From: Candidatus Enterousia sp.
GTDB taxonomy: Bacteria > Pseudomonadota > Alphaproteobacteria > Rs-D84
Assembly (NCBI GenBank): GCA_045648945.1
Contig: JAZROX010000052.1
Span: 8,417 to 72,416 of the forward strand
Length of the DNA: 64,000 nt
Direction of reading: 5' to 3'
Part shown: one piece after another, positions 1,966 to 45,742 of the stretch
How positions within the stretch are numbered: the first letter of the stretch is position 1
Layout: each line of letters begins with the position of its first letter
The notes under the pieces: generated by a model
Database searches by the model: none
Seen by the model: the letters and a program-made list of their open reading frames with translations, nothing else
What the model was told of the DNA's origin: nothing
Position numbers and translations under genes: made by a program

Positions 1966-1980
1966 TATTGGGCAACCCAA

Positions 1981-3618: not shown

Positions 3619-3619
3619 G

Positions 3620-16099: not shown

Positions 16100-16125
16100 C
16101 CCCGCGGTTTGCGGGGGCTTTTTGT
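16100..16125 (+). terminator. Terminator-like hairpin immediately upstream of the tail-fibre-like gene
   Basis: CCCCGC-GGTTT-GCGGGG followed by CTTTTTGTT. Confidence 0.5.
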
Positions 16126-16144
16126 TATAACAAAAGGAGTTAAT

Positions 16145-16981: not shown

Positions 16982-16982
16982 T

Positions 16983-17288
16983 ATGAAAAAATATGCAAAA
17001 ATAGTTAATGAAATCACAAAAGAATGTGAAGTCGGTCTTGGAACAGATGAGGTGTTTTATAAAAATCTGGGCATGACATTGCAAGATGTAGAAAAATCTT
17101 ATGATGGCGGATGGTATTTGGTGGGTTTCGCACCACAAAAACCAGAACCAACATATCAAGAACAACGCGCCGCGGCGTATCCAAGTATAAAAGAACAAAT
17201 GGATATGATTTACTGGGACCAAGTTAATGGAACCCATATATGGCAAGACAAGATTGCCGAAATCAAAAAAACATATCCGAAATGTTAG
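16983..17288 (+). CDS. Hypothetical 101-aa protein coupled to the tail-fibre-like gene (possible chaperone/assembly factor)
   Basis: Starts 1 nt after the upstream stop (TAATATG). No motif recognised; the role is inferred from position only. Confidence 0.4.
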   Translation: MKKYAKIVNEITKECEVGLGTDEVFYKNLGMTLQDVEKSYDGGWYLVGFAPQKPEPTYQEQRAAAYPSIKEQMDMIYWDQVNGTHIWQDKIAEIKKTYPKC

Positions 17289-19533: not shown

Positions 19534-19543
19534 TTTTATCTCT

Positions 19544-20770: not shown

Positions 20771-20785
20771 TAACGTATCCTTTGT

Positions 20786-22387: not shown

Positions 22388-22399
22388 GCGTACGTCTTT

Positions 22400-22744
22400 T
22401 TATCTTTGGTTTTGTTTCATTCTGCCCAGGTATTTATCGTTGTTTGCCCCCGGCATTTTTACAACCACATTTGTTGTGCCGTTTTCCAAACATTCAAAAT
22501 CGGTTGATTCACCCGGTTCCATAACAATAATGTCCCCAGCCACGTATTCTGTACCATTCATTTTTACGCGTCCAGATATAATACAGGTGTATTCTGTTGC
22601 AATTTTGTGATAATGCATTTCTTCAAAATCACCCTTGTTATATGTTTTGACCGCGACTTCGGCAACATTTGTCTTAAATAAAGACGGTTCAAAATTTCCA
22701 ATAAACCACCCTTTGGTCATTTCTGATAATTTTGCGGTTTTCAT
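22400..22744 (-). CDS. Cupin-domain protein (114 aa)
   Basis: HYHKIATEYTCIISGRVKMNG...GDIIVMEPGE matches the two-motif cupin pattern. Confidence 0.65.
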   Translation of the reverse strand: MKTAKLSEMTKGWFIGNFEPSLFKTNVAEVAVKTYNKGDFEEMHYHKIATEYTCIISGRVKMNGTEYVAGDIIVMEPGESTDFECLENGTTNVVVKMPGANNDKYLGRMKQNQR

Positions 22745-22745
22745 T

Positions 22746-23480
22746 TTATTTTGCTCTTTGTTGTTCTTTTAATTCCATTATATATTGTGCCAAATGTTGT
22801 TCGTTCTTTAACGGGTGAAACGCATCGTTTGAAATTTTGTGCATAACAACATTTTTTTGGCGCAAAATCATTTCGTTCAAAGTTTGGGAAATATAAAAAT
22901 TTCCTTTTATTAGATTATCTTTACGAATCACATCCATTGCGCATTCTGTAAAATCAAATCCGTGCCGAAAGTAATAAAAACTGACCAATGCGTTTTTAGA
23001 GATTGGCATTTTTTCTTCGGCCTGGACGACCGCACCGGAAGCGTCTGTTTTTGCAAATGAATAACGTGGGTGCACAGACGTAAAAGAAACAATCCCTGCA
23101 TCAGCAGACTTTTTACGAAAACCTTGGACAATTTTCTTGGCAGAATCAGATACAAAATCATCAACAGCCATCAAAATTAATTCGTCGTCATTTGCAATAT
23201 GTTTATATCCCAATAAAGCGGTACAAATCGCGCCACGTGTTTGATTTGAGATTTTAACTATTTCTGCATTTGGAACAATCTGTTCAATCACAGAATCAAC
23301 ACGAAATTGTTTGATATCAGATTCTTTGACACAAAATATATACTTTGCTGGGTTTAAGTCACGACAATATTCAATCTGTTGTTCCAGAATCAGTTTTTCA
23401 TTTATTTCTGTTAAATAAAAAGGATAATCTTCATTGTTTTTTTCTATGTGCGAAGATCCCATTAAAAACATAATATTCAT
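22746..23480 (-). CDS. Nucleotidyltransferase-fold (GT-A-like) protein lacking the GxGxR signature
   Basis: Paralogous to 24730-25488: NQTRGAICTALL vs ITEGQVCTALL, and FAKTDASGAVVQAEEK vs YAKTDENGLVTETAEK. However, the N-terminus is FLMGSSH instead of LPMAGRGSRF. ATG 23480 abuts the upstream stop. Confidence 0.55.
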   Translation of the reverse strand: MNIMFLMGSSHIEKNNEDYPFYLTEINEKLILEQQIEYCRDLNPAKYIFCVKESDIKQFRVDSVIEQIVPNAEIVKISNQTRGAICTALLGYKHIANDDELILMAVDDFVSDSAKKIVQGFRKKSADAGIVSFTSVHPRYSFAKTDASGAVVQAEEKMPISKNALVSFYYFRHGFDFTECAMDVIRKDNLIKGNFYISQTLNEMILRQKNVVMHKISNDAFHPLKNEQHLAQYIMELKEQQRAK

Positions 23481-23481
23481 A

Positions 23482-24117
23482 TTATTTACCCCCACGTTCA
23501 ATTTCACGAATGCGCCCCATGACATTATCCCATGTCACATCATCAACGGTTTTAACCGCCAATAAATGCCCCCCAGATGCGTTTGCGGCCTTGATACCAT
23601 TTTCATTATCTTCAACAATCAGACATTCGGATGGTTTTAAATTCAACTTTTTCATTGCAGTTAAATATATTTCCGGATCAGGTTTGGCATTTTTAACATC
23701 TTGGTTAGAAATAATAAAATTCAAATATTTATCCAATTTTGCATAACTCATCATCATTTCTATGGTCATACGTATGGAATTTGAACAGCACGCCACCGCA
23801 TAACCATTTGCGCGCAATTTAGATAAACAATATTCATGATTAAATCTTGGGCGGCATTGGTTCTGAATGATGCCGACAGTATATTGCTGTTTCATTTCAT
23901 TAATAAATTCATGTAACTCGACAGGCAAACCTTTTTCAAGGGTCAATTTTTTTAATTTAACCTTGGTTGGTAATCCGTCATAACTGGATAAATGTTCGGA
24001 CCGCGTAATTTCGTATCCAAACAATCCCAGTGCTTTATTCAATGCCTCATAGTGCCAATCTTTGGCTTCAATCAACACGCCGTCCATATCGAATAAAACA
24101 GCCTTAATTTTTGTCAT
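23482..24117 (-). CDS. HAD-superfamily phosphatase
   Basis: Motif I AVLFDMDGVLIE, plus a C-terminal VEDNENGIKAA (motif IV-like). Confidence 0.8.
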   Translation of the reverse strand: MTKIKAVLFDMDGVLIEAKDWHYEALNKALGLFGYEITRSEHLSSYDGLPTKVKLKKLTLEKGLPVELHEFINEMKQQYTVGIIQNQCRPRFNHEYCLSKLRANGYAVACCSNSIRMTIEMMMSYAKLDKYLNFIISNQDVKNAKPDPEIYLTAMKKLNLKPSECLIVEDNENGIKAANASGGHLLAVKTVDDVTWDNVMGRIREIERGGK

Positions 24118-24733
24118 AAAAATACTCCTTTGCTGAAATTGGCTTATCTGTGCACAGCATCAGATTGTCAGAATTAAATGATTTGGATTTTTTTATTTGT
24201 TCCCATTGATATCCCGTATCGCGTTTATGTAAATCAGATGATACAATACAAACATGCCCTGAATCTGCGACGATTTCGTCTAAACGCGCTGCGTCATACC
24301 AATCTGAATTAAACGCATCCAGCCACACGCCGCCACATTTATCCAGCAAAATTGGCGTTTTTATCAAATCACTTTGACCCGTATAAACATTTAATCCATT
24401 TGCAATTTGCACAACCATATCTGGAATGGACATATCAAACGTAAAATAATTCGTATGATTATATTTATCCAGCAATTCTTTGATTGCGGTTGCCTGGCCA
24501 TCTGCTTTGATGTTTAATGCCAATGGCAAATTGCGGCCGTCCATTATCTTTAGAACGTCTTCGAATGTTATCTCGTCGCCGTGTGGCATATCATGAGATA
24601 TAACAATTTTACCACAAATGTCGCGCAAATCTGTTTCTGTGCCAAAACCAGAATTAAAACTGCGAACAAAAGCGTCGCGTTTGTTACGTTCATCTTTTTT
24701 TTGCCAAAAACCACGATGCGACAAAATTATCAT
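24104..24733 (-). CDS. Glycerophosphodiester-phosphodiesterase-like protein
   Basis: N-terminal IILSHRGF...ERNKRDAF...GFGTETDLRD resembles the GDPD HR...EN...E.D signature. Confidence 0.55.
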   Translation of the reverse strand: MIILSHRGFWQKKDERNKRDAFVRSFNSGFGTETDLRDICGKIVISHDMPHGDEITFEDVLKIMDGRNLPLALNIKADGQATAIKELLDKYNHTNYFTFDMSIPDMVVQIANGLNVYTGQSDLIKTPILLDKCGGVWLDAFNSDWYDAARLDEIVADSGHVCIVSSDLHKRDTGYQWEQIKKSKSFNSDNLMLCTDKPISAKEYFYDKN

Positions 24734-25488
24734 TTTTGTTTGCCTTTTAAAAATTGGGACACAGGGTGCTTTAAGAAAAATTCCAAATCTGACGGGATGC
24801 CCAATCCATACATGCCGTCATATTCACGACCGATTGGATAAATGCCAATTTTTTTACCGGCGCGAATTAAATAATTATATGCAGGGCAGGTATAAAATTC
24901 GCCGTTTACACGAACATTATCCGCAATCATTTTCTCGGCGGCCCAAACCAAATCAGAACCATGCTTGAAATTAAATATGCCAACAGTTGCGTCTGGTGAA
25001 ATAACTTTTTTTTCTGCGGTTTCTGTGACCAAACCATTTTCATCTGTTTTGGCATAAGACCATTTTGGGTCGTTTGATTTCATTGTCATAATCATACCGT
25101 CTAAATCACGCGAATTCATCGCATCAAGGTATTCGTTAATATCAAAATCGATAAATTGGTCGGAATTCGCATTCATCAATGGTTCGTCATTGTTAAAAAA
25201 CTTTTTCGCCAACAACGCGGTGCAAACCTGACCTTCGGTAATACCATTAATCCCGATAACCTCTACATTTTTAGCATAGGACTTTAATTTCGGAATTAAA
25301 TCATACTGCTCTATGTGTGCCTGTTGGCAAACGTAAATAAACCTGTGTTCGCATTTTGGGGTTAAATTATCGGTCACAACCTTTATCATTGGAACGCCAT
25401 GCACCGGAATCAAGGGTTTTGGGATTGTGTATCCCGCATCGGCAAAGCGGCTGCCACGACCGGCCATTGGCAAAACGATGTTTAACAT
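24730..25488 (-). CDS. Sugar-phosphate nucleotidyltransferase
   Basis: N-terminal LPMAGRGSRF...PKPLIPV signature of NTP-transferase enzymes. Confidence 0.8.
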   Translation of the reverse strand: MLNIVLPMAGRGSRFADAGYTIPKPLIPVHGVPMIKVVTDNLTPKCEHRFIYVCQQAHIEQYDLIPKLKSYAKNVEVIGINGITEGQVCTALLAKKFFNNDEPLMNANSDQFIDFDINEYLDAMNSRDLDGMIMTMKSNDPKWSYAKTDENGLVTETAEKKVISPDATVGIFNFKHGSDLVWAAEKMIADNVRVNGEFYTCPAYNYLIRAGKKIGIYPIGREYDGMYGLGIPSDLEFFLKHPVSQFLKGKQK

Positions 25489-25489
25489 A

Positions 25490-26422
25490 TTAACGCTCCT
25501 TGGTTTTCATATAATTAATCATATCTGCAATAGTTTGTTGTAATGTGTATTGTGGTTTCCACCCCAGTTCTGTTTTTAATTTAGAATTATCACCAACCAC
25601 CGATGGTATTTCGTTTGCGCGAACACGTGACGGGTCAACAACTATATTCGGTTTTATTCCCAACGTGTTTGATGTAGTATCAATAATGTCGCGTAATTTT
25701 ACACCATGACCACTGCATACATTATAAACACTGCGATTCGGGGCGTTTTTGATTATTTTATAATATGCGTCAACAACGTCACGAACATCCGTGAAATCGC
25801 GCACTACATCGATATTGCCAACCATCATTTTGTTTTCAATTTTGCCACCCGCAATGTTCACCAGTTGTTCAACAAAAGACGGTATCACAAATCTTGTGTT
25901 TTGGCGGGGACCAATATGATTGAATGAACGTGTCATTACTATATCCATACCAAAATTATCTACATATAATTTCGACATGTATTCTTGGGACAGGCGCGCA
26001 ACCGAATACGGACTTTTGGGATGCAGCACAAAACTTTCATTCATTGGTGTATCGTAAATTCCGTATTCTTCGGACGACCCCACAGACAAAATTCGTGTCT
26101 TTAAATTATTTGTACGGACACCATCTGCCAAATTCAAGAATGCCGACATATTGTTTACAAAACAATTCGCCGGTTCGGCCCAACTTTGCGCAACCGAAGA
26201 TATGGCCGCCAAATGTACAATATGGTCAGGTTTAACATTTTGGATGAAATCGTTCACCTTGGTGGCGTCCATCAAGTTTAATGCTTTATATTCAATGTTC
26301 ATATCACAATTTGGTGCAATATCAACACCATAAATCTTTGCGTCTGGTTCATGTTTGTCAAGGTATTCAACAAAATAACGCCCCACAAACCCCATTACAC
26401 CAGTTATCAGATATTTGCTCAT
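25490..26422 (-). CDS. Extended-SDR NAD-dependent epimerase/reductase (candidate GDP-4-keto-6-deoxymannose reductase)
   Basis: Rossmann motif ITGVMGFVGRY and GSSEEYG. The catalytic position reads PYSVAR instead of Y-x-x-x-K. Lies directly downstream of gmd. Confidence 0.7.
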   Translation of the reverse strand: MSKYLITGVMGFVGRYFVEYLDKHEPDAKIYGVDIAPNCDMNIEYKALNLMDATKVNDFIQNVKPDHIVHLAAISSVAQSWAEPANCFVNNMSAFLNLADGVRTNNLKTRILSVGSSEEYGIYDTPMNESFVLHPKSPYSVARLSQEYMSKLYVDNFGMDIVMTRSFNHIGPRQNTRFVIPSFVEQLVNIAGGKIENKMMVGNIDVVRDFTDVRDVVDAYYKIIKNAPNRSVYNVCSGHGVKLRDIIDTTSNTLGIKPNIVVDPSRVRANEIPSVVGDNSKLKTELGWKPQYTLQQTIADMINYMKTKER

Positions 26423-26458
26423 TTGTTTTACCCTTAGAATTACATTATATTGATGTGG

Positions 26459-27508
26459 TTAAAATTGCTGTAACTTTTTTTCTTTTGCGGCCAATTTTAA
26501 ATCTTCGGCGACCATTTCGCGTGCCAAAGATTGCCAATCGTATGTCGGTTTCCATCCAAGTTCCGTACGTGCCTTGGTTGAATCGCCCAATAATAAATCA
26601 ACTTCGGCCGGGCGGAAGAATTGCGGATCAACCGCGACAACGGTTTTGCCGGTTGCACGGTCAACAGCCTTTTCATTTATGCCGGTCCCAGACCATTCCA
26701 AATCGAACCCGGCCGCCGTAAAGGCAACTTTGACAAAATCGCGGATGGATGTTGTGACGCCGGTCGCCAAAACATAATCCGATGGCTTTTCGGCCTGGAG
26801 AATGCGCCACATGCCTTCGACATAATCACGTGCATGACCCCAATCGCGTTTAGAATCCATATTGCCCAGATATAAACAATCTTGCAGTCCTTCTTTGATA
26901 CGTGCCGCCGCCAATGTAATTTTGCGGGTCACAAAGTTGTCGCCGCGGCGCGGACTTTCATGATTAAACAAAACACCGTTGCACGCAAACATGTTATAGG
27001 ATTCACGATAGTTCACGGTAATCCAATAACCATATAATTTCGCAACACCATACGGGCTGCGTGGATAAAATGGTGTTTTTTCAGATTGAATTGGTTCTTG
27101 GATTAAACCGAACAATTCGGATGTCGATGCCTGGTAAAAGCGTGTTTTTTGTGCCAAACCATTTGTATGAATTGCTTCTAGTAATCTTAATACGCCGATT
27201 GCGTCAGATTCCGCAGTGAATTCTGGACAGTCCCAAGAAATTTTAACGTGACTTTGTGCCGCCAGGTTATAAACCTCGTCCGGTTGTATTTCGCGAATTA
27301 AATTATTTAAACTGGTTGAATCTGTCATGTCGCTGTAATGCAGATGAAGTTTATTAATAATATGATCGATTCTTTGTGTGTTTGGAACAGATGCGCGACG
27401 AATAATGCCATGAACTTCGTAACCTTTGTCCAACAATAATTCGGCCAAATATGATCCGTCTTGTCCGGTGATACCTGTGATTAGTGCAATTTTCATTTTT
27501 TGCTCCAT
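26459..27508 (-). CDS. gmd: GDP-mannose 4,6-dehydratase
   Basis: [36 protein letters not shown] and [12 protein letters not shown]. The start may be the second ATG at 27496. Confidence 0.92.
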
Positions 27509-27519
27509 TTTTTATTTTT

Positions 27520-27957
27520 TTAGTTATCTTTGTTCCAGTTCGCCAAAATCCAAGACGAAGAATTTGCCTTGGTTTCCCCGCCAATACCAAAAACAACATC
27601 AACATTGCACTCTTGGGCGGTTGGGATTTCTGGGATATTATTTTTTGTTCTGTCGCCACCGTTTGCAAAGACCAAGTGGGCGTCCGGGTATTTATGACGA
27701 GCCTTTTTTATTCCGTCACATGCGGTATTATCAGAATCATCGAATTCTATAACATCTATGACACCTTTGATGTTTTCCAATATGGTGCGGCGAGTGTTCA
27801 TAGAATAAAAATTTTTACCTTTCTTGCGACATAACCATGCGTCGGAGTTCGCCAAGACAATTACGCCATCAGAGGCCACTGCGGATGCACGTATCATTTC
27901 AATATGACCTTCGTGAATAGGGTCAAATCCACCGGATACAATGTAATAAGTTTTCAT
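27520..27957 (-). CDS. Cytidylyl/adenylyltransferase-like nucleotidyltransferase (HxGH family)
   Basis: GGFDPIHEGH motif near the N-terminus. 145 aa. Confidence 0.7.
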   Translation of the reverse strand: MKTYYIVSGGFDPIHEGHIEMIRASAVASDGVIVLANSDAWLCRKKGKNFYSMNTRRTILENIKGVIDVIEFDDSDNTACDGIKKARHKYPDAHLVFANGGDRTKNNIPEIPTAQECNVDVVFGIGGETKANSSSWILANWNKDN

Positions 27958-29222
27958 ACGTCAAACCCCTTGTTAAATTCGTCGATGATTATTTGTATCG
28001 TTTTGTCCCAAGAAAATAACTTTGAACGTGCAAGTCCACGTGTTGCCATGGATTTGCGATATTTTTCATCAAAGTAATATTTTTCGTATGCCGCGATATG
28101 TTGTTTGTTGTTATCCCAATCTATGGTTATACCGGCATCACCAACAACCTCTGGCAAAGAAGAATTATTTGATGTAATAACCGGACATCCACATTTCATT
28201 GCCTCTAGTGGTGGCAACCCAAAACCTTCGTATTGTGAAGTGTAAACAAACCACTGGGCCCCAGAATACAACGCCGCCAAATCCGCATCATCAACGTATC
28301 CGGCACGAATGATTTTATTGCGATATTTCCCCAGGTCTTGAATTTCGCCTTCAAGTTTTTCAATAAATTTATTCCAATGCCCGCCACCAAGAACAAAAAC
28401 CATATCGTCAATTTTGTTTTTTTTGATAAATTCTATGAATGTTTTGATTGCACGAATTAAATTCTTGCGTGGTTCCAATGTGCAAAGTGAAAATATGTAT
28501 TTTTTATTGGTTGGAATATTATACTTTTCAAGAATTTTTCTTATCTTGCTTTTGTCTTGCTCTTGATAAAAATTGTCACCCGCCGCCAAAGGTGTCACAA
28601 TAATATCATCTGGGTGCACGTTTAACAGTCTAACAAAGTCGTTTTTTGTGGATTGAGATATTGCAAAATATTTGCATTTCGGTTTCGATTTTATGTATTT
28701 AATTAATGTGTCATACCAAAAATTCTTTTTACACCGGAGTGCGTCATAGTAATTCGGTAACAGTATTGGAATCGCATCATATAAAACAACGTATTTCTTG
28801 GTGGCCTTGATTTTATTCGATGGAATGTATATCGGAGATATCACAATATCAAAATTTTGTGTTTTGTGTAATCGGCCAATCATATGAATCGGTTTTCGGA
28901 CAAATATGTTTAGTAATAATTTTGTGATATTACATCTTTTCGCCCGCAATTTCGTATCCAAAATCGATAGCTTGTTTAATAAAACTGCATATTTATTTCC
29001 AAAATAAATTTTTATATCTTTGCCAAAATTCTTTTCCACGAAAGCAATAAAATCTTTGCTGCACACATTGTTGCAAAATAAAGAAATATCAAATTGTTGC
29101 GATTTTACAAGGTTTGTTAATATGTTATATGCGGCAAAGTATATACCAGAACGCCCGGCGGAAAAATTGGAAATGTTATCCGAAATAACAGATGCGTCGA
29201 ATAATAAGGTTTTCTTACTCAT
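27954..29222 (-). CDS. Glycosyltransferase, GT4 family
   Basis: [36 protein letters not shown]. First gene of the minus-strand glycan operon. Confidence 0.85.
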
Positions 29223-29429
29223 AATGGGCGCCTATTGTAAAAACTCCATAATTTTGTTAACATTTAACAGCCGCTTTTGTTTAATGTATCGGCATTATAA
29301 AATAAAAAATCATAAGTTTCAATAAATTAAACCTGTTTTTTATATGGTGGCCAAAATGAAAAAATAAAGCATTTTATCGTTAAATTTGTATGGTTGTAAT
29401 TTGAAATTTTTGGGTTATAATCAAAAAAC

Positions 29430-30191
29430 ATGTATAAAAATCAAGATATTTTAAATTCTTTCTATGCGGCGGCTGATGCGAAGCACAGACGTTACAATAC
29501 GATGTATATAAATTCGATTGATGGCAATCGTATTATCGGTGTGCGGACGCCGAAATTGCGTGCGATGGCCTGTGATATGGTGGAAAATGGCACGTGGCGT
29601 GATTTTGTTGCCGATTTGCCGCACCATTTTTTTGAGGAAAATCAAGTGCATGCGTTTATTATTTCGGAAATTAAAGATTTTGATTTCGTGATCGATGCGG
29701 TTGATAGATTTTTGCCGTATGTTGATAATTGGGCCACATCCGACCAGATGTCACCAAAGATATTTTCAAAAAATACCAAAAAATTGTTGCCGTATATACA
29801 AAAATGGATTAAGTCGGATAATGTTTATGCGGTGCGTTTCGCAATAATTTGCCTTATGCGGTATTATTTGACCGACAGGTTTGATGAAAAATATGTTCGT
29901 ATGGTTGCGGACATTAAATCCAAAGAATACTATATAAACATGGCACGTGCGTGGTATTTTGCCACCGCCGCCGCGAAGCAATTTGATACGGTTTTGCCGT
30001 ATTTCGCACAATTGGATCTTTGGACGCGTACGCGCGCGATTGAAAAATCATTTCAATCCTATCGCGTGGACGAAGAAAATAAGTTAAAATTGAAAGAATT
30101 TAGGCAAAGGATAAAAGATGAACAACGTATTAGATGCAATAAAAAATCGTCGATCCGTTTACGGAATAAACAAGAATTTACCGATTTTTAA
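29430..30191 (+). CDS. DNA alkylation repair protein (AlkD-like HEAT-repeat family)
   Basis: The pattern GVRTPKLRAMA...W..F...LPHHFFEENQVHAF...YVDNWATSD is typical of the DNA_alkylation family. Confidence 0.65.
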   Translation: MYKNQDILNSFYAAADAKHRRYNTMYINSIDGNRIIGVRTPKLRAMACDMVENGTWRDFVADLPHHFFEENQVHAFIISEIKDFDFVIDAVDRFLPYVDNWATSDQMSPKIFSKNTKKLLPYIQKWIKSDNVYAVRFAIICLMRYYLTDRFDEKYVRMVADIKSKEYYINMARAWYFATAAAKQFDTVLPYFAQLDLWTRTRAIEKSFQSYRVDEENKLKLKEFRQRIKDEQRIRCNKKSSIRLRNKQEFTDF

Positions 30192-36697: not shown

Positions 36698-38686
36698 GTG
36701 AATAAAAAAATTTTTAATCTTGAAAGTAATTACAAACCAATGGGTGACCAACCGGCCGCCATTTCTGATTTGGTGCGCGGAATTGCCGATGGTCGCCGGT
36801 CCCAGGTGTTGTTGGGGGTGACGGGGTCTGGGAAAACCTTCACAATGGCGAATGTTATTGCCGAAATTGGTCGGCCGGCATTGATTATGGCGCCAAATAA
36901 AATCTTGGCGGCGCAGTTGTATACGGAAATGAAGTCTTTTTTTCCGCATAATCATGTGGAATATTTTGTGTCTTACTATGATTATTATCAACCCGAGGCG
37001 TATGTTCCAACAACCGATACATATATCGATAAAGACGCGTCTATTAATGAACAATTGGACCGGATGCGTCACAGTGCAACGCGTGCGATGTTGGAAGAAC
37101 GCGATGTTATTGTTGTGTCGTCTGTGTCGTCTATATACGGGTTGGGTACGCCGGAACAATATTCGGAAATGAAGTTGGTTTTGCACGTGGGGGATATGAT
37201 GGGCGTGCATGATATTGTGCGCGAATTGGTGAATATTCAATATAAACGAAATGATGTCGTGCCATCGCGCGGTGATTTTCGCGTACGTGGGGATACGTTG
37301 GATATTTTCCCGTCACACAGTCAAGACCGTGGGTGGAAGGTTTCTTTTTGGGGGGATGAAATCGAAGAAATATGGGAATTTGATACATTGACGGGGGCCA
37401 AGTTGTTTAAACTGGACCGGGTTGCGGTTTATCCAAATACGCATTATGCGACGCCCATGCCATCCATTGCCCAGGCGATTGGGCAAATTCGGTCCGATTT
37501 GAATGAACGGTTGGCGTACTTTCATGAAAATATGAAGTATGTCGAAGAACAACGTTTGCGTGAACGCGTAAATATGGATATTGAAATGATGGAATCAACC
37601 GGAACGTGTCGCGGAATTGAAAACTATTCGCGGTATTTGTCGGGGCGCGCCCCGGGTGAACCGCCACCGACTTTGTTTGAATATCTGCCGAAAGATGCGA
37701 TTTTATTTATTGATGAAAGTCATGTGACTGTGCCACAAATTGGTGCGATGTCGCGTGGGGACAGGGCGCGTAAAGAAACATTGGCCCAGTATGGATTCCG
37801 GTTGCCTTCGTGTGTGGATAATCGACCACTTACATTTGATGAATGGGATTCGATGCGGCCCCAGACGATTTTTGTATCGGCAACACCGGCGGAATGGGAA
37901 TTATCGCAATCCGGTGGAATTGTCGCCGAACAGGTTATTCGCCCAACGGGACTTTTGGACCCGGAATGTATAGTTCGACCAATTACAAACCAAGTTGATG
38001 ATTTGTTGGGTGAATTAAAATCTATTTCTGGACGTGCGCTGGTCACGACACTGACCAAAAAAATGGCCGAACAGTTGACGGACTATTTGGTTGAAAATGG
38101 GGTGCGTGCGCGATACCTGCACAGTGATATTGAAACATTGGAACGTATAGAATTGTTGCGGGATTTGCGGGTTGGAAAATTTGACGTGTTGGTTGGAATA
38201 AATTTGTTGCGCGAAGGTTTGGATGTCCCGGAATGTGAATTGGTTGCAATTATGGACGCCGATAAAGAAGGGTTCTTGCGGTCTGCGCGGTCGTTGATTC
38301 AAACCATAGGGCGCGCGGCACGAAATGCAAATGGGCGCGTCATACTGTATGCAGATGTGATAACAGATTCGATGAATGCGGCGCTTTCCGAGACGGCACG
38401 TCGTCGTGAAAAACAAATGGCGTATAATGCGGAACACGGTATTACACCAAAAACCGTGTCCAAGGCAATATTTGACGAAGTGACCGAAAAACAAGAAAAG
38501 GTTGATAAAAAACGTAGATTCTTGTATACCAAGGATGGTGTGACAGATGCCGAAACATTACGTCGTGAAATAAAAACGTTGAATCAAAAAATGCGGCGTG
38601 CGGCGGAAAACTTGGATTTTGAGGTGGCAGCGGAAATTCGTGACACAATTCGAAAAATGGAAGATGACCTGTTGGTGTTGGAGTAA
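36698..38686 (+). CDS. uvrB: Excinuclease ABC subunit B
   Basis: GVTGSGKTFT Walker A, helicase motifs (DESH, LVTTLTKKMAE, QTIGRAARN), and a C-terminal UVR domain. GTG start. Confidence 0.97.
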   Translation: MNKKIFNLESNYKPMGDQPAAISDLVRGIADGRRSQVLLGVTGSGKTFTMANVIAEIGRPALIMAPNKILAAQLYTEMKSFFPHNHVEYFVSYYDYYQPEAYVPTTDTYIDKDASINEQLDRMRHSATRAMLEERDVIVVSSVSSIYGLGTPEQYSEMKLVLHVGDMMGVHDIVRELVNIQYKRNDVVPSRGDFRVRGDTLDIFPSHSQDRGWKVSFWGDEIEEIWEFDTLTGAKLFKLDRVAVYPNTHYATPMPSIAQAIGQIRSDLNERLAYFHENMKYVEEQRLRERVNMDIEMMESTGTCRGIENYSRYLSGRAPGEPPPTLFEYLPKDAILFIDESHVTVPQIGAMSRGDRARKETLAQYGFRLPSCVDNRPLTFDEWDSMRPQTIFVSATPAEWELSQSGGIVAEQVIRPTGLLDPECIVRPITNQVDDLLGELKSISGRALVTTLTKKMAEQLTDYLVENGVRARYLHSDIETLERIELLRDLRVGKFDVLVGINLLREGLDVPECELVAIMDADKEGFLRSARSLIQTIGRAARNANGRVILYADVITDSMNAALSETARRREKQMAYNAEHGITPKTVSKAIFDEVTEKQEKVDKKRRFLYTKDGVTDAETLRREIKTLNQKMRRAAENLDFEVAAEIRDTIRKMEDDLLVLE

Positions 38687-38689
38687 GAT

Positions 38690-39100
38690 ATGAAAACATT
38701 TATAACAAAAAATATTGATGAAACACGTGCGTTTGCGCGTGATTTTGCGCGCACTTTGCATGCGCCGGTGACCGTTGCATTACATGGTGATTTGGGCGTC
38801 GGAAAAAGTGAGATTGCGCGGACAATAATTCAAACACTGTGTGGGGGGGATACCGTGGTACCAAGTCCGACATTTACATTGGTCCAAACATATATTGCGG
38901 GCGATACAAAGATTTCGCATTTCGATTTATACAGAATTTCAGACGCGGCGGAATTGGTTGAAATTGGGTTGGATTATGCAATTCAAAACGATATCACACT
39001 GATTGAATGGCCGGATATTGCCGCGAATATGTTGCCGGAAAATACGATTCATGTTGATATTTCTGAATATGAATCGGGCCGTAAAATTATTGTGCGTTAG
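38690..39100 (+). CDS. tsaE: tRNA threonylcarbamoyladenosine biosynthesis ATPase TsaE
   Basis: LHGDLGVGKSEIAR P-loop, SPTFTLV and HFDLYR blocks. 136 aa. Confidence 0.85.
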   Translation: MKTFITKNIDETRAFARDFARTLHAPVTVALHGDLGVGKSEIARTIIQTLCGGDTVVPSPTFTLVQTYIAGDTKISHFDLYRISDAAELVEIGLDYAIQNDITLIEWPDIAANMLPENTIHVDISEYESGRKIIVR

Positions 39101-40874
39101 TTTTATCGGGTGGTAACAGTGATAAAACCGCCAATGGAAAATCTGGGGATGATGCAAGATATGAACCACTGACCAATGCGTCGGCACCGGCGTCCCAACA
39201 CCCGCGCGCCGTTTCGGCATTTATGCCACCGTCCACGGATATGGTGAATTTAAGTCCATATTTTTTTCGTGTTGCGTTTAATACCATAATTTTTTGCAGT
39301 GCGTTACGGTCAAATTCTTGACCGGCGGCACCGGGCACCACCCCCATAACCATTACTTCATCCAATTCGCGAATAATTGTTTTTAATAAAGATACAGGCG
39401 TTTCGGGATTTAACGCGATGCCGACGCGACGTTTTGAATTGCGAACAAATTGGACCGCCGCACGCAGCCCCGCCGTATTTGGTGAAACAATGACCGTATC
39501 TGCGCCGGCGTTTACCGCGCTGCGCGCCCATTCGGCGGGTGCATCGGTCATAAGGTGAACATGCAAGTGTCCACCCCAGGATGCACGAATTTGGCGTAAT
39601 TCGTCGATTCCGCCCGCGATTTGATTAACGTATAATCCGTCCATAATATCAACATGTATGGCCAAAATTCCGGACGTTTTAAACATGGTGTATGTTTCGG
39701 GACGCGTCATATCAAAGCACATAGTACTTGGTAAAATCGGTATTTGGCGTTGACGGGTTTTCTTTTTTCGATTGAATATTTTTAATATTTTATCGATACG
39801 ATTTTGTACCCTTTGTGCGCGTTCAATGTATGCGCGACGACGTGGTAATTCGGCCCGCCATATATATTCGCCCAATGCGCGTACCGCACAATCAGAATCT
39901 TTTTTAACAAATGGTATATCAAATGCATGACCAATCAAATCGTCGATTCCGTTTATGCATGCGCCACCACCGGTCACTATAATTTGTGTAGGGGAATATT
40001 TATTTATATATTCGGCAACATCGGTTTTTATGCCGTTTATTAAATCTTTATAGAATGGCGCAACAATTTCGTTCACGTCGGCACATGAAAACGCGTATGC
40101 AGAATCGGCCGGACTGAATCGTGCCATTTCGTTTGATTTAAGATTTGCAGATTTACGTTTAATGCGTTCGGCTTCGGCAAAAGGTATGGCAAGGCGCGTT
40201 GATATTTCATCCGTCAAATCATTTCCGGCAATGGCGCGCCCATCATAATAAACGGGGCCGCGGTCGGTCCATATTGATGTCGTTGTATGTTCCGCCCCAA
40301 AATCGATGAACATAATAGTTTCTTTTGGATTACGAAACACGGCGTTTTCCAAGAAATGTGGCGTATAGAACGCGTTTGATTGCATGTGTGCACGACGCAA
40401 CAATGTCTGAATTTTTTGCATATATTCTTTATCAAAAAACAGCGCAGAAAATGCCGATATCAATTGACGGTCATTATGTCCAATTGGTGATAACATGTTG
40501 CGTATTTTTGGTGTGTCATAACGCAGCGGGATGATATGCATTGGGTAAAAACCGTCGGGTGCATCAATTTCGGCAATTTGCGATTTTACGTCGGCCGCGG
40601 TTATTTTGTGGTCGCCGGACCATGTTGTGTTTTTTGCGCACATTTTGAAGTAAGATGGTCCAAAATTTCCCGTTATATATGCCGAACCAAAATGTGTTCC
40701 AATTTGGCGTTCCAATTCATCTATGACAGATTTTAGGGCGAATACAGTATCAAAATCGTCCACAGAATAATATGCACATTTGTCTATTTCGGCGTTGCGG
40801 ATTCGGTATGCCAGTCCCCGAACACCGCAAGACCCGATATCCAGACACAGAAAAGATGAATCCAGCATATTCAT
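39087..40874 (-). CDS. ftsA: FtsA (actin-like cell-division ATPase) fused in frame to a complete ribulose-phosphate 3-epimerase domain
   Basis: - N-terminal 375 aa: LCLDIGSCGVRG, FIDFGAEHTT, IVTGGGACINGIDDL, and an amphipathic tail IDKILKIFNRKKK.
- C-terminal 220 aa: ILPSTMCFDM...IHVDIMDG, HVHLM and SVDGG, matching Rpe metal ligands.
- No stop codon between the two parts. Confidence 0.8.
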   Translation of the reverse strand: MNMLDSSFLCLDIGSCGVRGLAYRIRNAEIDKCAYYSVDDFDTVFALKSVIDELERQIGTHFGSAYITGNFGPSYFKMCAKNTTWSGDHKITAADVKSQIAEIDAPDGFYPMHIIPLRYDTPKIRNMLSPIGHNDRQLISAFSALFFDKEYMQKIQTLLRRAHMQSNAFYTPHFLENAVFRNPKETIMFIDFGAEHTTTSIWTDRGPVYYDGRAIAGNDLTDEISTRLAIPFAEAERIKRKSANLKSNEMARFSPADSAYAFSCADVNEIVAPFYKDLINGIKTDVAEYINKYSPTQIIVTGGGACINGIDDLIGHAFDIPFVKKDSDCAVRALGEYIWRAELPRRRAYIERAQRVQNRIDKILKIFNRKKKTRQRQIPILPSTMCFDMTRPETYTMFKTSGILAIHVDIMDGLYVNQIAGGIDELRQIRASWGGHLHVHLMTDAPAEWARSAVNAGADTVIVSPNTAGLRAAVQFVRNSKRRVGIALNPETPVSLLKTIIRELDEVMVMGVVPGAAGQEFDRNALQKIMVLNATRKKYGLKFTISVDGGINAETARGCWDAGADALVSGSYLASSPDFPLAVLSLLPPDKTNAQ

Positions 40875-41555
40875 TTATTTGACCAAAATCCTTGCGTTGT
40901 CGCGCATATCAATTGTTTTTATGTTTTTAGATAGCAGGTTGTGTTTTTTATCCAATACGACCAAAGAAGCAATTGCCGCGGTTGGGTCTTCTTCGGGTAA
41001 CATAACCATAATTCCGCCGGTTGTCATAATATTCCATCGCCGATCGTCAATCCATTCCATATAATCCAATTCGCCAATAAGATTTGTTGCGGCCTTGGTA
41101 ATATCGGATATGTCATTTGGCAACGGGCCACGGAACATAACAACGCCGTCTTTTTTTTCTTCGGACGGACTGTTGACGACCGTGCCATCCGCAGACAACG
41201 GATAATAATACGTTCCGTCCGTCCAACCGGCGACCGCGCGATACAGGTGTAATTTCACAGCCAGGTTTCCATTTGGCATGCGTCGCACGGCCGATTCGCG
41301 GACACCCGGCGTGTTTAATAATCTTTCGTTTATTAATTCAAGGTTCACAGAATACGCGTGTGTTCCGGGTGATACCCCGGTGGCGGCAACCATCGGGGTT
41401 AAATCTTTGCCGTCCAGGTCCGCCGATACAGATATATTGCGAACCGTCGATGTTGGGCCGTAACCCATAAATGTCATAATTATACGTGTTGCAAAGTATA
41501 TCGCCAATAAAATGGCGGCAACAAAATAGAGCCAAAACCACAGGTTGCGTTTCAT
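40875..41555 (-). CDS. ftsQ: Cell division protein FtsQ (POTRA domain)
   Basis: Single N-terminal TM segment, then POTRA-like VRNISVS...INERLLNTPGVRESAVRRMPNGNLAVKL. Its stop abuts the ftsA start. Confidence 0.8.
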   Translation of the reverse strand: MKRNLWFWLYFVAAILLAIYFATRIIMTFMGYGPTSTVRNISVSADLDGKDLTPMVAATGVSPGTHAYSVNLELINERLLNTPGVRESAVRRMPNGNLAVKLHLYRAVAGWTDGTYYYPLSADGTVVNSPSEEKKDGVVMFRGPLPNDISDITKAATNLIGELDYMEWIDDRRWNIMTTGGIMVMLPEEDPTAAIASLVVLDKKHNLLSKNIKTIDMRDNARILVK

Positions 41556-41609
41556 GTCGCATATTATAGCATACTTTATATTAAATGTAAAAGCAGGGGT
41601 GCAAAAAAA

Positions 41610-41999
41610 TTACATCGCGCGCAGTAAGTACCCACGGCGGAACATACATTTTCGATATGAACCCACAGATTTTGATGTTGTATTGCGCGGCACAGACAGC
41701 AATGCGCGTTGCCCAACGTCTTTGTATTCATTTGATTGGAATGTCACCCAAAGACCGTCCCAATCGGGCATACGGGTGCTCTGGGTTGGGGAAAGCAGTT
41801 TTGCCAGGCGTGAACGTGGCATGTATGATGGTTGTGTTATGCCCAGGCATGCCTTGTGGTCGCGAACAAATTGTTCGGTTGTGACCGATTCGTTTTCCCA
41901 ATTTAAAATTGTGGCGTCATCAATACTGCCCCCGTTGGGGGAAGTGCACGCGGCAACACCAAATAAACCAACAAATAAAAATATTTTTAACATTCTCAT
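41610..41999 (-). CDS. Lipoprotein, unknown function (129 aa)
   Basis: Lipobox LFGVAAC at the end of the signal peptide. Confidence 0.6.
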   Translation of the reverse strand: MRMLKIFLFVGLFGVAACTSPNGGSIDDATILNWENESVTTEQFVRDHKACLGITQPSYMPRSRLAKLLSPTQSTRMPDWDGLWVTFQSNEYKDVGQRALLSVPRNTTSKSVGSYRKCMFRRGYLLRAM

Positions 42000-42073: not shown

Positions 42074-42397
42074 ATGGCGATAAGTGTTCAAAATTTTATT
42101 AAGTTGGCAAATTTCTATAACCAATTGGCCAAGACTATGTCCGCAATATGCGTGAACAAGGGTGGAATACCAATTGAAAACTATGTCGGTCGTTTTTTTG
42201 CGGCGGATGTGTTAGAATTTGTTGTAGAATATGGTGAACGTTTGGTAAAATCATCCAAGAACGTGTCGCCGGATGTTGTGAATGTGTTGGAACGGTTTCG
42301 TGCCCAGTTTGAACATGTGCGCGGTTTGACCACACCTTCACAAAAACCGATATATGAAATGACGTTGGAAGAATTTGAAAAAGTGATGAACATTTAA
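42074..42397 (+). CDS. Hypothetical protein (107 aa)
   Basis: GGGGGAAAGG Shine-Dalgarno-like sequence before the ATG. No motif recognised. Confidence 0.45.
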   Translation: MAISVQNFIKLANFYNQLAKTMSAICVNKGGIPIENYVGRFFAADVLEFVVEYGERLVKSSKNVSPDVVNVLERFRAQFEHVRGLTTPSQKPIYEMTLEEFEKVMNI

Positions 42398-42411: not shown

Positions 42412-43737
42412 ATGAAAAAAGTTATAAATTTTGCTTTGATGGGCGTGTGTGTTTTGTTGGGGGCGTGTATGCGCGATGATTCGCGTGACGAGAAGGTTTA
42501 TTATGACACGGTCCAGGTTGTTGATAATTTGGTCATAGATGATAATTCTGTGCCGATTTTCCCAAAAAAGGCGGCGTTGACCACCGATACGGCGCGCCGG
42601 TTTTCGGTTGAATTGCCGCGGCGTTGCACGGTGAATTGGGATAATCAATCGGTTGTGTCGGTTGTGCCAGATGAAAAAATTGAAATGGTGCGATTGGACC
42701 GCGGGGACCCGTTGCCAGAATTACAGGTTTCGGATTATGAGTTTAGAAAACAGACCGTTGCAAATGCTTTGAATAAGTTATTAGAAGGTGTAGATATCGC
42801 CGTGGTAGAGGTTGAGCCGGGTTATGAAAAGGTGTCTGGGTCGGTGGCGTCGGGTAATTTGTCCGATACTGTTGATTTAATTGCACGGTTGGGGCGTATG
42901 TATTATTCGTATGATGCCGCAGGGGGTGAGATAAAACTTTCAAATCGGGCCAAATGGCTGATAAAAATGCCGGCCGAGCAAGATATCATTATGGCATTGT
43001 TGGACGCGATGCATGGTGCAGATGTGCGTAATCTGATTGTGGATTGGGCCGACAAGACATTGGTGTTCGAAGGTAATTATCAAACCGAGCGAGAGGTTTC
43101 ACATATAATTGCGGATATTGCGTCGAAAAAATATGTTTTGGCATGGGATATGGATGTGTACCGTGTTTATCCGCGAACCGACAATCCGATTGTGTGGATG
43201 AATATGTTACCGGCATTTGGGGAAAAGAATATAAAAATGTCTGTGCCGGGTGTTGTTGGGCGCGCATTGGTTGTTGGACCAGAGGTGAATACAAAAACAT
43301 TGCAAGAATTCCTATCGGCCCAGGCGAACGTTGTCTTGGTGTCCCAGGGACATTTTGTTGTCCCGGATGGTTGGCAATCGCGATTTGATATTGGCCAATG
43401 CAGCAAGGAAGAACGTTTAGAGACAGATTTGATTGTTGGTGCGTCGGCCAAATATGGTGACTTTGCCGGGCGCAAGAAAATAGATGCGAAAATCGTATTA
43501 CGGACAAGTCGCGGTGAACTTTCGTCATTCACGATACCGTCCAGTATCGGCGATAACTATGTTATAATTGGTATTCCGACGCATTCGTTTGTGACGACGC
43601 CGGAAACGCTAATAAGTCCATTCGCGGAATTGGTTGTGTTTATGTCGCCACGGATTGTTTCGATTGTAAATCCGGCGGATATTCCGGACGAACCGCAATT
43701 GGTCGGTGATGCGTTACGGAATTTCTTGCGCAACTGA
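42412..43737 (+). CDS. Secretin-like outer-membrane lipoprotein (tentative)
   Basis: Lipobox LLGAC. The C-terminal third resembles a secretin domain (ANVVLVSQGHFVVPDGWQSRFDIGQ ... GDNYVIIGIP ... ELVVFMSPRIV, compare the secretin end ELLIFITPRIV). At 441 aa it is short for a secretin. Confidence 0.4.
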   Translation: MKKVINFALMGVCVLLGACMRDDSRDEKVYYDTVQVVDNLVIDDNSVPIFPKKAALTTDTARRFSVELPRRCTVNWDNQSVVSVVPDEKIEMVRLDRGDPLPELQVSDYEFRKQTVANALNKLLEGVDIAVVEVEPGYEKVSGSVASGNLSDTVDLIARLGRMYYSYDAAGGEIKLSNRAKWLIKMPAEQDIIMALLDAMHGADVRNLIVDWADKTLVFEGNYQTEREVSHIIADIASKKYVLAWDMDVYRVYPRTDNPIVWMNMLPAFGEKNIKMSVPGVVGRALVVGPEVNTKTLQEFLSAQANVVLVSQGHFVVPDGWQSRFDIGQCSKEERLETDLIVGASAKYGDFAGRKKIDAKIVLRTSRGELSSFTIPSSIGDNYVIIGIPTHSFVTTPETLISPFAELVVFMSPRIVSIVNPADIPDEPQLVGDALRNFLRN

Positions 43738-43759: not shown

Positions 43760-45016
43760 ATGATGTTTAGTAAACTGGAAAGAAAAATTGCATTTAGGTA
43801 CCTGGGCGCGCGGCGGCGCGGGTTTGGTTCTGTGGTGTCATGGGTGTCCTTGATTGGTATAATGCTGGGTGTGGCAACACTGATTGTTGTTATGTCGGTG
43901 ATGGGCGGTTTTCATGATACGTTACTGGCGCGGATTGTGGGGATGAACGGGCATGTCGTTGTTTATCACCAAGACGGTGCAATTGCGGATTATGACTTTC
44001 TGATTGAACAGATGAAATCCAGTAAAACCGTTGCGCGGACGGTGTCTTCCATTGTGCCAATTGCCGAAGACCAGGTTATGGTGACGCATAATGGTAATAA
44101 TACTGGTGCGATGGTGCGCGGAATAAGGATGTCTGATTTGGCGGCCAAGACGGCGGCCGGGACACGTATGTACGGTAAATCTTTGTCTGAGATTCGTGAC
44201 GGAGAATTGGTTGCGGGTGCATCATTGACCCGAAATTTGAATGTGCATATGGGTGAAAATGTGTCTTTGGTTTCGGCGAATGGCGCGACACCAACCGCGT
44301 TTGGAACAATGCCGCGGATTATGTCTTACCCGGTGATGACATCGTTCTTTATGGGAATGTATGAATATGATTCGGGATACATATTTATGCCATTGGAAAC
44401 GGCCCAGAAATATCTGAACCTGGGTGATGCGGTGACGCATATTGATTTGTTCCTTAAAAATCCAGAAGATACGACCGATGTTGTGAATGCGTTGATTGCG
44501 GAATTGCCCGATGGTTATGTAGTGCGCGATTGGCGTGATTTGAATCGTGGGTTTGTTGGTGCGCTCCAGGTGGAAACGAATGTTATGTTTCTTATCCTTA
44601 TGCTGATTGTAATTGTGGCGGCGTTTAATATTGTTTCGTCATTGGTTATGTTGGTCAAAGATAAATCAAAAGATATCGCTGTTCTGCGGACGTTCGGTGT
44701 GTCGCGGCGTTCTATGATGAAGATATTCGTTTTGTCGGGAACCAGTATCGGTGTTATCGGGGCGACATTTGGAACGATATTGGGGGTTATTGTTGCAATC
44801 TATATTGAACCGATTCGCAAATTTTTCCAATGGGCAACGGGGCGCGATTTGTTTCCGGCGGAATTGTATTATTTGTCTGAATTGCCGTCACGCCTGGAAT
44901 TTACAACGGTTGTGGGAATCGCGATTTTGGCGATTGCATTGGCATTTTTGGCAACAATTTATCCGGCATGGAAGGCCGCAAACACCGACCCGGTAGAGGT
45001 GTTAAGAAACGAATAA
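43760..45016 (+). CDS. Lipoprotein-release ABC permease, LolC/LolE family
   Basis: N-terminal AFRYLGARRR...FGSVVSW plus TM1, a large periplasmic domain, and a C-terminal FtsX-type 3-TM bundle (ILMLIVIVAAFNIVSSLVMLVKDKSKDIAVLRTFG). Confidence 0.88.
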   Translation: MMFSKLERKIAFRYLGARRRGFGSVVSWVSLIGIMLGVATLIVVMSVMGGFHDTLLARIVGMNGHVVVYHQDGAIADYDFLIEQMKSSKTVARTVSSIVPIAEDQVMVTHNGNNTGAMVRGIRMSDLAAKTAAGTRMYGKSLSEIRDGELVAGASLTRNLNVHMGENVSLVSANGATPTAFGTMPRIMSYPVMTSFFMGMYEYDSGYIFMPLETAQKYLNLGDAVTHIDLFLKNPEDTTDVVNALIAELPDGYVVRDWRDLNRGFVGALQVETNVMFLILMLIVIVAAFNIVSSLVMLVKDKSKDIAVLRTFGVSRRSMMKIFVLSGTSIGVIGATFGTILGVIVAIYIEPIRKFFQWATGRDLFPAELYYLSELPSRLEFTTVVGIAILAIALAFLATIYPAWKAANTDPVEVLRNE

Positions 45017-45031
45017 GAAAGGGATTATGTA

Positions 45032-45742
45032 ATGGCGTCGATATTAAATTCTTTGTCGCGGGCGAAAAGTGGTGATGTGGTCCTTTCGGTGCGTGATATT
45101 AAAAAGACCTTTGTCGAAGGTGGGCAACCGTTGCATATCTTGGTCGGTGGCGGGTTTGATTTGCATCGTGGGGAAATTATCGCATTGGTTGGGCCGTCGG
45201 GTTCGGGTAAATCTACACTGCTACAATGTGTTGGGTTGTTGGATAAACCCAGCGGGGGCAGTATCTTGGTCGGTGGAACCCCGGTGCATACAATGAATGA
45301 TGAAATGCGCACCTTGGTACGGCGGCGTAAAATGGGTTTTGTGTACCAGCGGCATAATTTACTGGCCGATTTTACAGCGCTGGAAAATGTTATGTTGCCA
45401 ATGTTGGCGAACGGAATGGGTGAAGACGCGGCGCGGACGCGGGCAATGAAGTTATTGAAATCTGCGAATGTCGCGCATCGTGCATCGCATTTGCCGGGAC
45501 AAATGTCGGGTGGTGAACAACAACGAACGGCCGTCGCACGTGCATTGGCGAATAATCCGGATATATTGTTAGCGGATGAACCAACGGGCAGTTTGGATCC
45601 GAATCACGCAATCGCGGTTTTTGAATTATTGTTGGATTTGGTGCGGAAAAATAAAATGGCAATGTTATTTGTGACGCATGATATGTCTTTGGCGAATCGT
45701 GCCGATAGACAAATTACTATAAAAAATGGTATAGTTAAATAA
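45032..45742 (+). CDS. lolD: Lipoprotein-release ABC ATPase LolD
   Basis: Walker A GPSGSGKST, signature MSGGEQQR, Walker B ILLADEPTG. Lies adjacent to the LolC/E permease. Confidence 0.9.
   Translation: MASILNSLSRAKSGDVVLSVRDIKKTFVEGGQPLHILVGGGFDLHRGEIIALVGPSGSGKSTLLQCVGLLDKPSGGSILVGGTPVHTMNDEMRTLVRRRKMGFVYQRHNLLADFTALENVMLPMLANGMGEDAARTRAMKLLKSANVAHRASHLPGQMSGGEQQRTAVARALANNPDILLADEPTGSLDPNHAIAVFELLLDLVRKNKMAMLFVTHDMSLANRADRQITIKNGIVK

Follow-up and report, generated by a model that had tools for sequence, protein, structure and literature searches.

Bacteria anchor their division ring to the membrane through FtsA, a conserved protein whose membrane-targeting helix normally stands at its very end. 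Ribulose-phosphate 3-epimerase (Rpe) is a pentose-phosphate enzyme in which two Asp ligands of the metal also serve as acid/base catalysts and, by the geometry of TIM barrels, the N-terminus of the barrel lies on the face opposite the active site. Several metabolic enzymes moonlight as division regulators, namely UgtP in B. subtilis, OpgH in E. coli, and GdhZ and KidO in Caulobacter. Here we describe a gene that joins ftsA and rpe in a single open reading frame (ORF), located in a stretch of 64,000 nucleotides from Candidatus Enterousia sp. (hereafter, the window). It resembles the four cases above in that an enzyme of central metabolism is physically linked to the FtsZ/FtsA machinery, but those are separate proteins that bind FtsZ conditionally, whereas this one would be a covalent and permanent fusion to FtsA. 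In the Firmicutes-type prkC-rsgA(cpgA)-rpe cluster, rpe also lies near regulators of the cell envelope and division, but that is a neighbourhood without fusion and in a different lineage. What is new is the FtsA-Rpe combination, both domain families being well known: a first, sequence-only reading of this DNA knew of no description of such a fusion, and our full-text searches likewise returned no paper describing one.

FtsA and Rpe domains in one reading frame

The ORF listing gives, at 39087..40874 on the minus strand, a single ORF of 595 amino acids (aa) plus stop with FtsA and Rpe in one frame. The protein consists of four parts, an FtsA core, a long basic amphipathic helix, a disordered basic tether and an Rpe barrel, which are distributed as follows (pLDDT, predicted local distance difference test):

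39087..40874, minus strand: complete ftsA::rpe fusion ORF (ORF listing; two Pfam domains in one protein; full-length homologues)
39852..40874, minus strand: FtsA core, aa 1-341 (profile match to 7q6f; Foldseek; motif conservation; pLDDT ~90-96)
39777..39848, minus strand: basic amphipathic helix, aa 343-366, LPRRRAYIERAQRVQNRIDKILKI (predicted helix; top hydrophobic moment; character kept family-wide)
39738..39776, minus strand: disordered polybasic tether, aa 367-379, FNRKKKTRQRQIP (pLDDT <50; linker charge; weaker constraint)
39762..39768, minus strand: A_AAA_AAG heptamer, in frame, in the Lys-rich tether (dnaX slippery-site motif; judged incidental)
39090..39737, minus strand: Rpe (beta/alpha)8 barrel, aa 380-595 (PF00834; 2fli by sequence and fold; ligand columns)

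Pfam recognizes both domains in the same polypeptide, PF14450 (FtsA) at aa 189-321 with 43.7 bits and PF00834 (Ribul_P_3_epim) at aa 394-573 with 130.6 bits, both above their cutoffs (31.8 and 21.1, respectively). Among the NCBIfam models, that for ftsA (TIGR01174) aligned over aa 43-339 and those for rpe over aa 378-584, and the AlphaFold2 model of the window protein has a mean pLDDT of 88.6. The in-frame fusion proposed in the sequence-only reading is thus borne out: the coordinates 39087-40874 and the features described there are all present in the sequence, the fusion is conserved across a whole order, the model and the fold search identify both halves, and the ratios of nonsynonymous to synonymous substitution rates (dN/dS) indicate that both are constrained.

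The N-terminal half (aa 1-341) carries the core motifs of FtsA, phosphate-1 (LDIGS), phosphate-2 (IDFGAEHTT) and adenosine (TGGGA), and the residues D12/G14, D191/G193/T197 and G302-G304, present in the window protein, are conserved in most lineages. A profile of 31 diverse fusion proteins matched the solved FtsA 7q6f with E=7e-26 over aa 9-338, nearly the whole core, and also matched the FtsA of E. coli, S. aureus and T. maritima. The same profile matched PilM (1e-12) and MreB (1e-10), but these matches were confined to the C-terminal subdomain. In a Foldseek search against the PDB, ranks 1-19 were all FtsA chains with target TM-scores of 0.64-0.74, while PilM reached 0.53. The modelled core, with a pLDDT of ~90-96, includes the inserted subdomain of the FtsA type; the corresponding Pfam insert, SHS2_FTSA, was detected in distant members of the family and not in the window protein alone. 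The gene lies directly after ftsQ in every related locus and upstream of ftsZ in none. On this sequence and model evidence, we identify the N-terminal half as a divergent but genuine FtsA. With the solved FtsAs (1E4F/4A2A from T. maritima, 7Q6D from E. coli and 7Q6F from V. maritimus) it shares the actin-like fold, the inserted subdomain, the nucleotide motifs, a basic amphipathic helix after the core and a gene placed directly downstream of ftsQ. It differs from them in being ~15% identical and below the NCBIfam cutoff, in having the helix inside the protein instead of at the extreme C-terminus, in the 216-residue enzyme domain that comes after it, and in that ftsZ is not the next gene. In one clade of homologues (P0145, at L018:10001-11716, P0147 and P0148) the phosphate-1 Asp is changed to Tyr and the phosphate-2 Asp to Asn or His, with the Rpe residues intact; judging from these changes, the FtsA half of this clade may no longer hydrolyse ATP.

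The barrel of the C-terminal half is complete from beta-strand 1, extending in the model from strand 380-383 to helix 579-586. The metal ligands H407, D409, H440 and D548 are present, together with S383 of the N-terminal PS motif and the phosphate-loop residues P514-G515..G518-Q519 and G570-S571. The ligands and the phosphate-loop residues are strictly conserved in 29 of 31 representative lineages, including that of the window. The catalytic motifs noticed in the sequence-only reading, HVHLM and VDGG among them, are indeed there: HVD, HVHLM, PGAAGQ, VDGG and GS align with E. coli and S. pyogenes Rpe. S. pyogenes Rpe (2fli) was matched by sequence with E=1e-31 and by fold with a target TM-score of 0.91-0.92 and a root-mean-square deviation of 1.4-1.6 A over ~210 residues, at ~31% identity. 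The Rpe models outscored that of the paralogue AlsE (NF004076, 162.8 bits, and TIGR01163, 141 bits, versus 131 bits for NF007266), as did 2FLI (1e-31) when compared with the AlsE structure 3CT7 (1.7e-28), and the nearest stand-alone Rpe found was 32-42% identical. On the basis of sequence and model, this half is a complete Rpe barrel that is catalytically equipped and for which epimerase activity is predicted. It has in common with Rpe, as represented by 2FLI and the E. coli enzyme, the complete barrel, the His/Asp/His/Asp ligands, the phosphate loops and the motifs HLM and VDGG. In contrast to stand-alone Rpe it is ~31% identical to the best solved one, has PGAAGQ for PGFGGQ, lacks a start of its own and is tethered at its N-terminus.

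Between the two halves, helix 343-366 displays a continuous hydrophobic stripe (Y349, A353, V356, I360, I363/L364 and F367). It contains the segment IDKILKIF, in which the sequence-only reading had recognized a membrane-targeting-like helix, and it holds the most amphipathic 14-mer of the whole protein, tied with one 14-mer of the Rpe half. Across 136 members, the junction has a mean identity of 46% and keeps its amphipathic character, and the net charge of aa 345-380 ranges from +8 to +15. Disorder is predicted for the tether (aa 367-379), with an AlphaFold2 pLDDT below 50 at aa 369-375, and 13 basic residues lie between the helix and beta-strand 1 of the barrel (380-383). Sequence and model suggest that helix 343-366 is the counterpart of the FtsA membrane-targeting helix, in this case internal, and binding to the membrane is predicted.

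The signals that could separate the two halves were also considered. The TAA stop codon of ftsQ abuts the ATG of the fusion (TAA ATG). Neither a Shine-Dalgarno sequence nor a conserved start codon was found ahead of the Rpe half in the window gene or its relatives, a consensus scan disclosed no credible promoter-like site suitably placed for it, and the nearby Met (M385) is Leu in most relatives. An internal Rpe start was rejected on these grounds, and the earlier statement that the Rpe half lacks its own start holds. The heptamer A_AAA_AAG occupies codons 369-371, and in the window the -1 frame stops after 16 codons. It is missing from the closest relatives (L001-L003, which have CGC AAA AAG or other codons) and from most of the family, and where present it tracks Lys-rich or AT-rich sequence. 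No conserved frameshift site exists at the junction across the family, and a programmed -1 frameshift was rejected as a family feature, the heptamer being absent in the closest relatives and a by-product of Lys codons.

Conservation of the fusion and its host clade

In a search of 5.8 billion clustered proteins, each of the 120 best matches listed carried both domains, with lengths of 529-598 aa and identities from 99% to 57%; leaving aside two that were truncated by contig ends, all of these measured 587-598 aa. The same ORF was present in 17 GTDB species-representative genomes, metagenome-assembled genomes (MAGs) from rumen and gut, at 86-52% identity. A metagenome scan yielded ~20 further loci, each with one stop-free frame of 586-610 aa unless cut by the end of the contig. 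Once the locus translations were added, the family comprised 136 distinct sequences that could be aligned over their full length (99% to ~50% identity). When sequencing runs were compared as assembled Logan contigs, an independent contig of 2,879 nt (run X1) spanned positions 38600-40997, differing by 31 substitutions and 0 gaps; indels were reported in none of four runs. The window gene was compared with seven relatives by the Nei-Gojobori method, and dN/dS was 0.07-0.13 for FtsA, 0.07-0.12 for Rpe and 0.14-0.41 for the linker, values that are approximate at a dS of ~1. Since dN/dS is low in the two halves and in the linker, the whole frame is translated and constrained. In 28 of 30 aligned homologues, conservation was higher in the Rpe half than in the FtsA half, the exceptions being P0134, in which both halves are degenerate, and P0130.

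We carried out an exhaustive phmmer search of 1.84 billion representatives using the FtsA half alone, which gave 40 matches at E<=1e-10. All the full-length matches were fusions, and ordinary FtsAs of 400-440 aa appeared only at ~23-26% identity. Neither this search nor the metagenome scan disclosed adjacent but split ftsA and rpe genes, so that the question of fusion versus separate genes in relatives, raised in the sequence-only reading, is answered by fusion throughout. Two candidates for unfused forms were rejected, since P0126 (430 aa) is truncated by the contig end and P0121 (487 aa) is a frameshifted fragment of the fusion. A 603-aa "fusion" at L087 was also discarded as a long stop-free frame in high-GC DNA with an Rpe domain only. 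At L067:5411-11446 and L072:5448-11529, the PASTA kinase gene prkC, rsgA and rpe are followed by a gene for a 413-416-aa protein without Pfam match and then by ftsZ. This arrangement was rejected as a split precursor because it belongs to an unrelated organism and the resemblance of the 413-aa protein to FtsA is weak at best (hhalign probability 36%).

The carriers, MAGs from rumen and gut, bear the label Alphaproteobacteria or Candidatus Enterousia and correspond to the GTDB order Rs-D84. Rs-D84 genomes are smaller than 1 Mb and devoid of most biosynthesis; MreB, RodA and MrdA are reported to be encoded, and most of the genomes have an annotated non-oxidative pentose-phosphate pathway minus transaldolase (PMC12306168). 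More distant fusions, located after ftsQ in MAGs labelled Rickettsiales or Alphaproteobacteria, have an FtsA half that is only 22-30% identical, yet keep both FtsA (with the SHS2 insert) and Rpe. Because these distant fusions share the architecture and the position after ftsQ, the fusion is dated to the ancestor of a deep, order-level clade. In public databases the family goes under the names "ribulose-phosphate 3-epimerase", "pilus assembly protein PilM" and "hypothetical protein", and FtsA appears in none (inconsistently named entries are P0025, P0048, P0075, P0119, P0145, P0148, P0170, P0272 and P0286). With such annotations, automated metabolic and divisome reconstructions of these MAGs miss or mislabel ftsA.

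Origin and role of the fusion, and alternative readings

We believe that the most plausible explanation, to which we assign a probability of about 0.75, is that the gene is the ftsA ortholog of Rs-D84, joined in frame to rpe in an ancestor common to the order, and that the product is one bifunctional, membrane-proximal polypeptide. The origin was probably an accidental join of neighbouring genes after the division and cell-wall cluster had broken up in the course of genome reduction, and the fusion would have become fixed, since a return to two genes calls for a stop, a start and a ribosome-binding site that would all have to arise anew. The gene would yield one chain of ~67 kDa, its translation probably being coupled to that of ftsQ. 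The FtsA part would act as the membrane anchor of the divisome, with the helix and the polybasic tether on the inner leaflet of the membrane, and the barrel would be an active epimerase held at the membrane beside FtsA, working in a truncated non-oxidative pentose-phosphate pathway. As the genome is smaller than 1 Mb, the fusion is probably the only Rpe of the cell. The barrel may in addition contribute structurally to FtsA function, for example through oligomerisation or as a spacer at the membrane. It is a plausible inference that the divisome anchor carries a tethered pentose-phosphate enzyme.

Some observations weigh against this explanation. Both halves are divergent and score below or just at the curated NCBIfam cutoffs: TIGR01174 gave 66.3 bits and did not reach 175.85, TIGR01163 gave 141.3 and did not reach 212.6, and NF004076 fell just short (162.8 versus 165). 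The partnership of FtsA with FtsZ in this clade is assumed, ftsZ not having been found in the loci searched. The heptamer of the window could in principle give a minor FtsA-only product. Finally, two lineages without Rpe catalytic residues, P0130 and P0134 (described below), indicate that epimerase activity is not what keeps the domain in every lineage.

With regard to the alternatives, the idea that an assembly or sequencing artefact, such as a missed stop or an indel, merges separate ftsA and rpe genes can practically be set aside. The sequence-only reading had considered a hidden stop codon, and this does not stand against more than 135 distinct full-length homologues, independently assembled from different sample types, that keep the frame, 17 GTDB species representatives and ~20 metagenome contigs that are all single ORFs, an X1 contig without gaps, runs without indels, and a linker that is itself under purifying selection (dN/dS 0.14-0.41). 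It is also improbable that the gene gives two products, either by a -1 shift at A_AAA_AAG, by internal initiation or by proteolysis in the basic tether. Such a shift in the window would terminate just past the helix, and the disordered, Lys/Arg-rich tether should be accessible to proteases, but the heptamer is lacking in L001-L003 and most members and elsewhere tracks sequence composition, and the Rpe half has no Shine-Dalgarno sequence, conserved start (residue 385 being mostly Leu) or credible promoter-like site before it. We consider it very improbable that the N-terminal half is not a working FtsA, be it a paralogue with an actin fold, PilM-like or other, or an FtsA relic unlinked from FtsZ. 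The TIGR01174 score of 66 bits, the Pfam PilM_2 match to the N-terminal half of the window protein, the label "pilus assembly protein PilM" that NCBI gives to some members, the pilus/secretion-like module (T2SSE, T2SSF and PilO-like) elsewhere in the window, the failure to find ftsZ nearby (window and ~40 loci) and the loss of the phosphate-1 and phosphate-2 aspartates in the P0145, P0147 and P0148 clade would all fit that possibility. Against it, the family profile fits the whole FtsA core while PilM and MreB match in the C-terminal subdomain only, the 19 top Foldseek hits are FtsA with PilM at 0.53, the SHS2_FTSA insert is found in distant members, the gene always follows ftsQ (ftsI-ftsQ in L020), and no other ftsA-like gene occurs in any locus examined.

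A further alternative, which we regard as unlikely, is that the Rpe barrel serves FtsA mainly in a structural or regulatory capacity, either as an oligomerising scaffold at the membrane or as a pentose-phosphate sensor that tunes the divisome, with catalysis being secondary. It draws on the two degenerate lineages. P0130 (L023:4568-6295) carries H407N, H440N and D548Y and has no PG..GQ loop, and P0134 (L022:10001-11770; also L024 and L025) has lost the FtsA phosphate motifs and, as confirmed by independent pairwise alignment to 2FLI, Rpe ligand and acid-base residues (H to Y, D to T and D to C); both keep their full length. The P0134 gene has 20% GC and the same gene order as the window, which makes it a true ortholog by synteny, and it is predicted to keep both folds (pLDDT 88.8), although this prediction leans on the intact homologues in the alignment. 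In three strains of this lineage dN/dS was ~0.2-0.28 over both halves and ~0.24-0.28 in the Rpe-like half, values that rest on 6-15 substitutions per domain. These cases suggest that something other than catalysis can keep the barrel in place, and reversion to split genes is seen nowhere in the order. Metabolic enzymes that modulate division (UgtP, OpgH, GdhZ and KidO) provide precedents. In E. coli, mutants in rpe and other pentose-phosphate genes show altered cell size and Z-ring frequency (PMC5825171). On the other side, the strict metal ligands and phosphate-loop residues in 29 of 31 lineages are as expected under catalytic selection and argue that catalysis is normally selected for, in 28 of 30 homologues evolution is slower in Rpe than in FtsA, the dN/dS of the degenerate lineage depends on few substitutions, and the greater divergence of Rpe relative to FtsA in P0130 (ratio 0.58) is in keeping with decay and not with a new role. 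It is tentative, and rather doubtful, that the barrel is an integral divisome-anchor module, held on the membrane beside FtsA by the internal helix and the 13-residue tether, one that oligomerises or spaces FtsA or couples pentose-phosphate status to division; such a module would explain why the domain is retained under constraint despite the loss of catalytic residues and, in one lineage, of the FtsA ATP-binding residues as well.

Returning to the bifunctional polypeptide, the bacteria of an entire order, from gut and rumen and with genomes below 1 Mb, carry a complete enzyme of central metabolism after the FtsA helix. If the fusion is merely tolerated, it shows the capacity of the FtsA C-terminus to bear cargo and is a clean case of gene fusion in genome reduction. 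If it is functional, it would represent a hard-wired link between pentose-phosphate metabolism and cell division.

The locus and the rest of the window

The genes and sites around the fusion are the following:

40875..41555, minus strand: ftsQ, its stop abutting the fusion ATG (PF03799; pair kept in all related loci)
38690..39100, plus strand: tsaE, convergent, where ftsZ would normally lie (PF02367, TIGR00150)
41610..41999, minus strand: lipoprotein-like ORF of ~129 aa, upstream of ftsQ (no Pfam match; promoter-like site upstream)
41563..41591, minus strand: promoter-like site, 11/12 matches, with TG extension (consensus scan, just upstream of ftsQ)
42074-42397, 42412-43737 and 43760-45742, plus strand: divergent block (~107-aa ORF, ~440-aa ORF, then lolCE/lolD)

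As noted in the sequence-only reading, the ftsQ-ftsA-ftsZ order is broken, with the convergent tsaE following the fusion. The 3' ends of both genes overlap by 14 nt (39087-39100); in L022, L024 and L025 the overlap is 8 nt, which fits extreme genome compaction. The gene 3' of the fusion varies, being tsaE in most loci, argS in L018 and rpmB in L020, where a 97-aa ORF, ftsI and ftsQ, in that order, precede the fusion. By tblastn with E. coli FtsZ, Rpe and FtsA, no ftsZ was found in the 64-kb window or within 8-10 kb on each side of the fusion in ~40 related loci, and no second ftsA or rpe was seen in the window or those loci. A Pfam scan of 30 further ORFs of the window and 10 ORFs of rearranged flanks gave no division, cell-wall or pentose-phosphate genes.

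An ORF of 124-132 aa on the same strand precedes ftsQ in most loci, and the unit formed by this ORF, ftsQ and ftsA::rpe is conserved across the order, the ~129-aa lipoprotein-like ORF of the window probably being its first gene. The promoter-like site at 41563..41591 is suggestive only, as the number of such sites in the scan was not above the shuffled expectation. Opposite to the unit lies a divergent block that is also conserved order-wide, in which the ~107-aa and ~440-aa ORFs, both without Pfam family, precede lolCE and lolD.

The rest of the window contains a pilus/secretion-like module, gyrB, a low-GC glycan island, aspS, asmA, uvrB, tolC/acrB, fmt, truA and comEC. The first of these, at 42-4690 on the plus strand, resembles type IV pilus and type II secretion systems, with a PilO-like accessory protein, a T2SSE ATPase and a T2SSF platform, and is followed by a Fic/DOC-HTH protein at 4773-5813. 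Such a module is an unexpected cargo for a genome below 1 Mb and may be related to the proposed partner-dependent lifestyle. At 14000-30000 the GC content falls to 0.35-0.39, versus ~0.43 elsewhere, in an island of glycan-synthesis genes (several GT4 glycosyltransferases, an FkbM methyltransferase, a GDP-mannose 4,6-dehydratase, an NAD-dependent epimerase/dehydratase and a nucleotidyltransferase). A RhuM-family gene is found at its edge (14589-15635) and a tRNA-Met at 12724-12798, and the island may be a horizontally acquired surface-polysaccharide locus.

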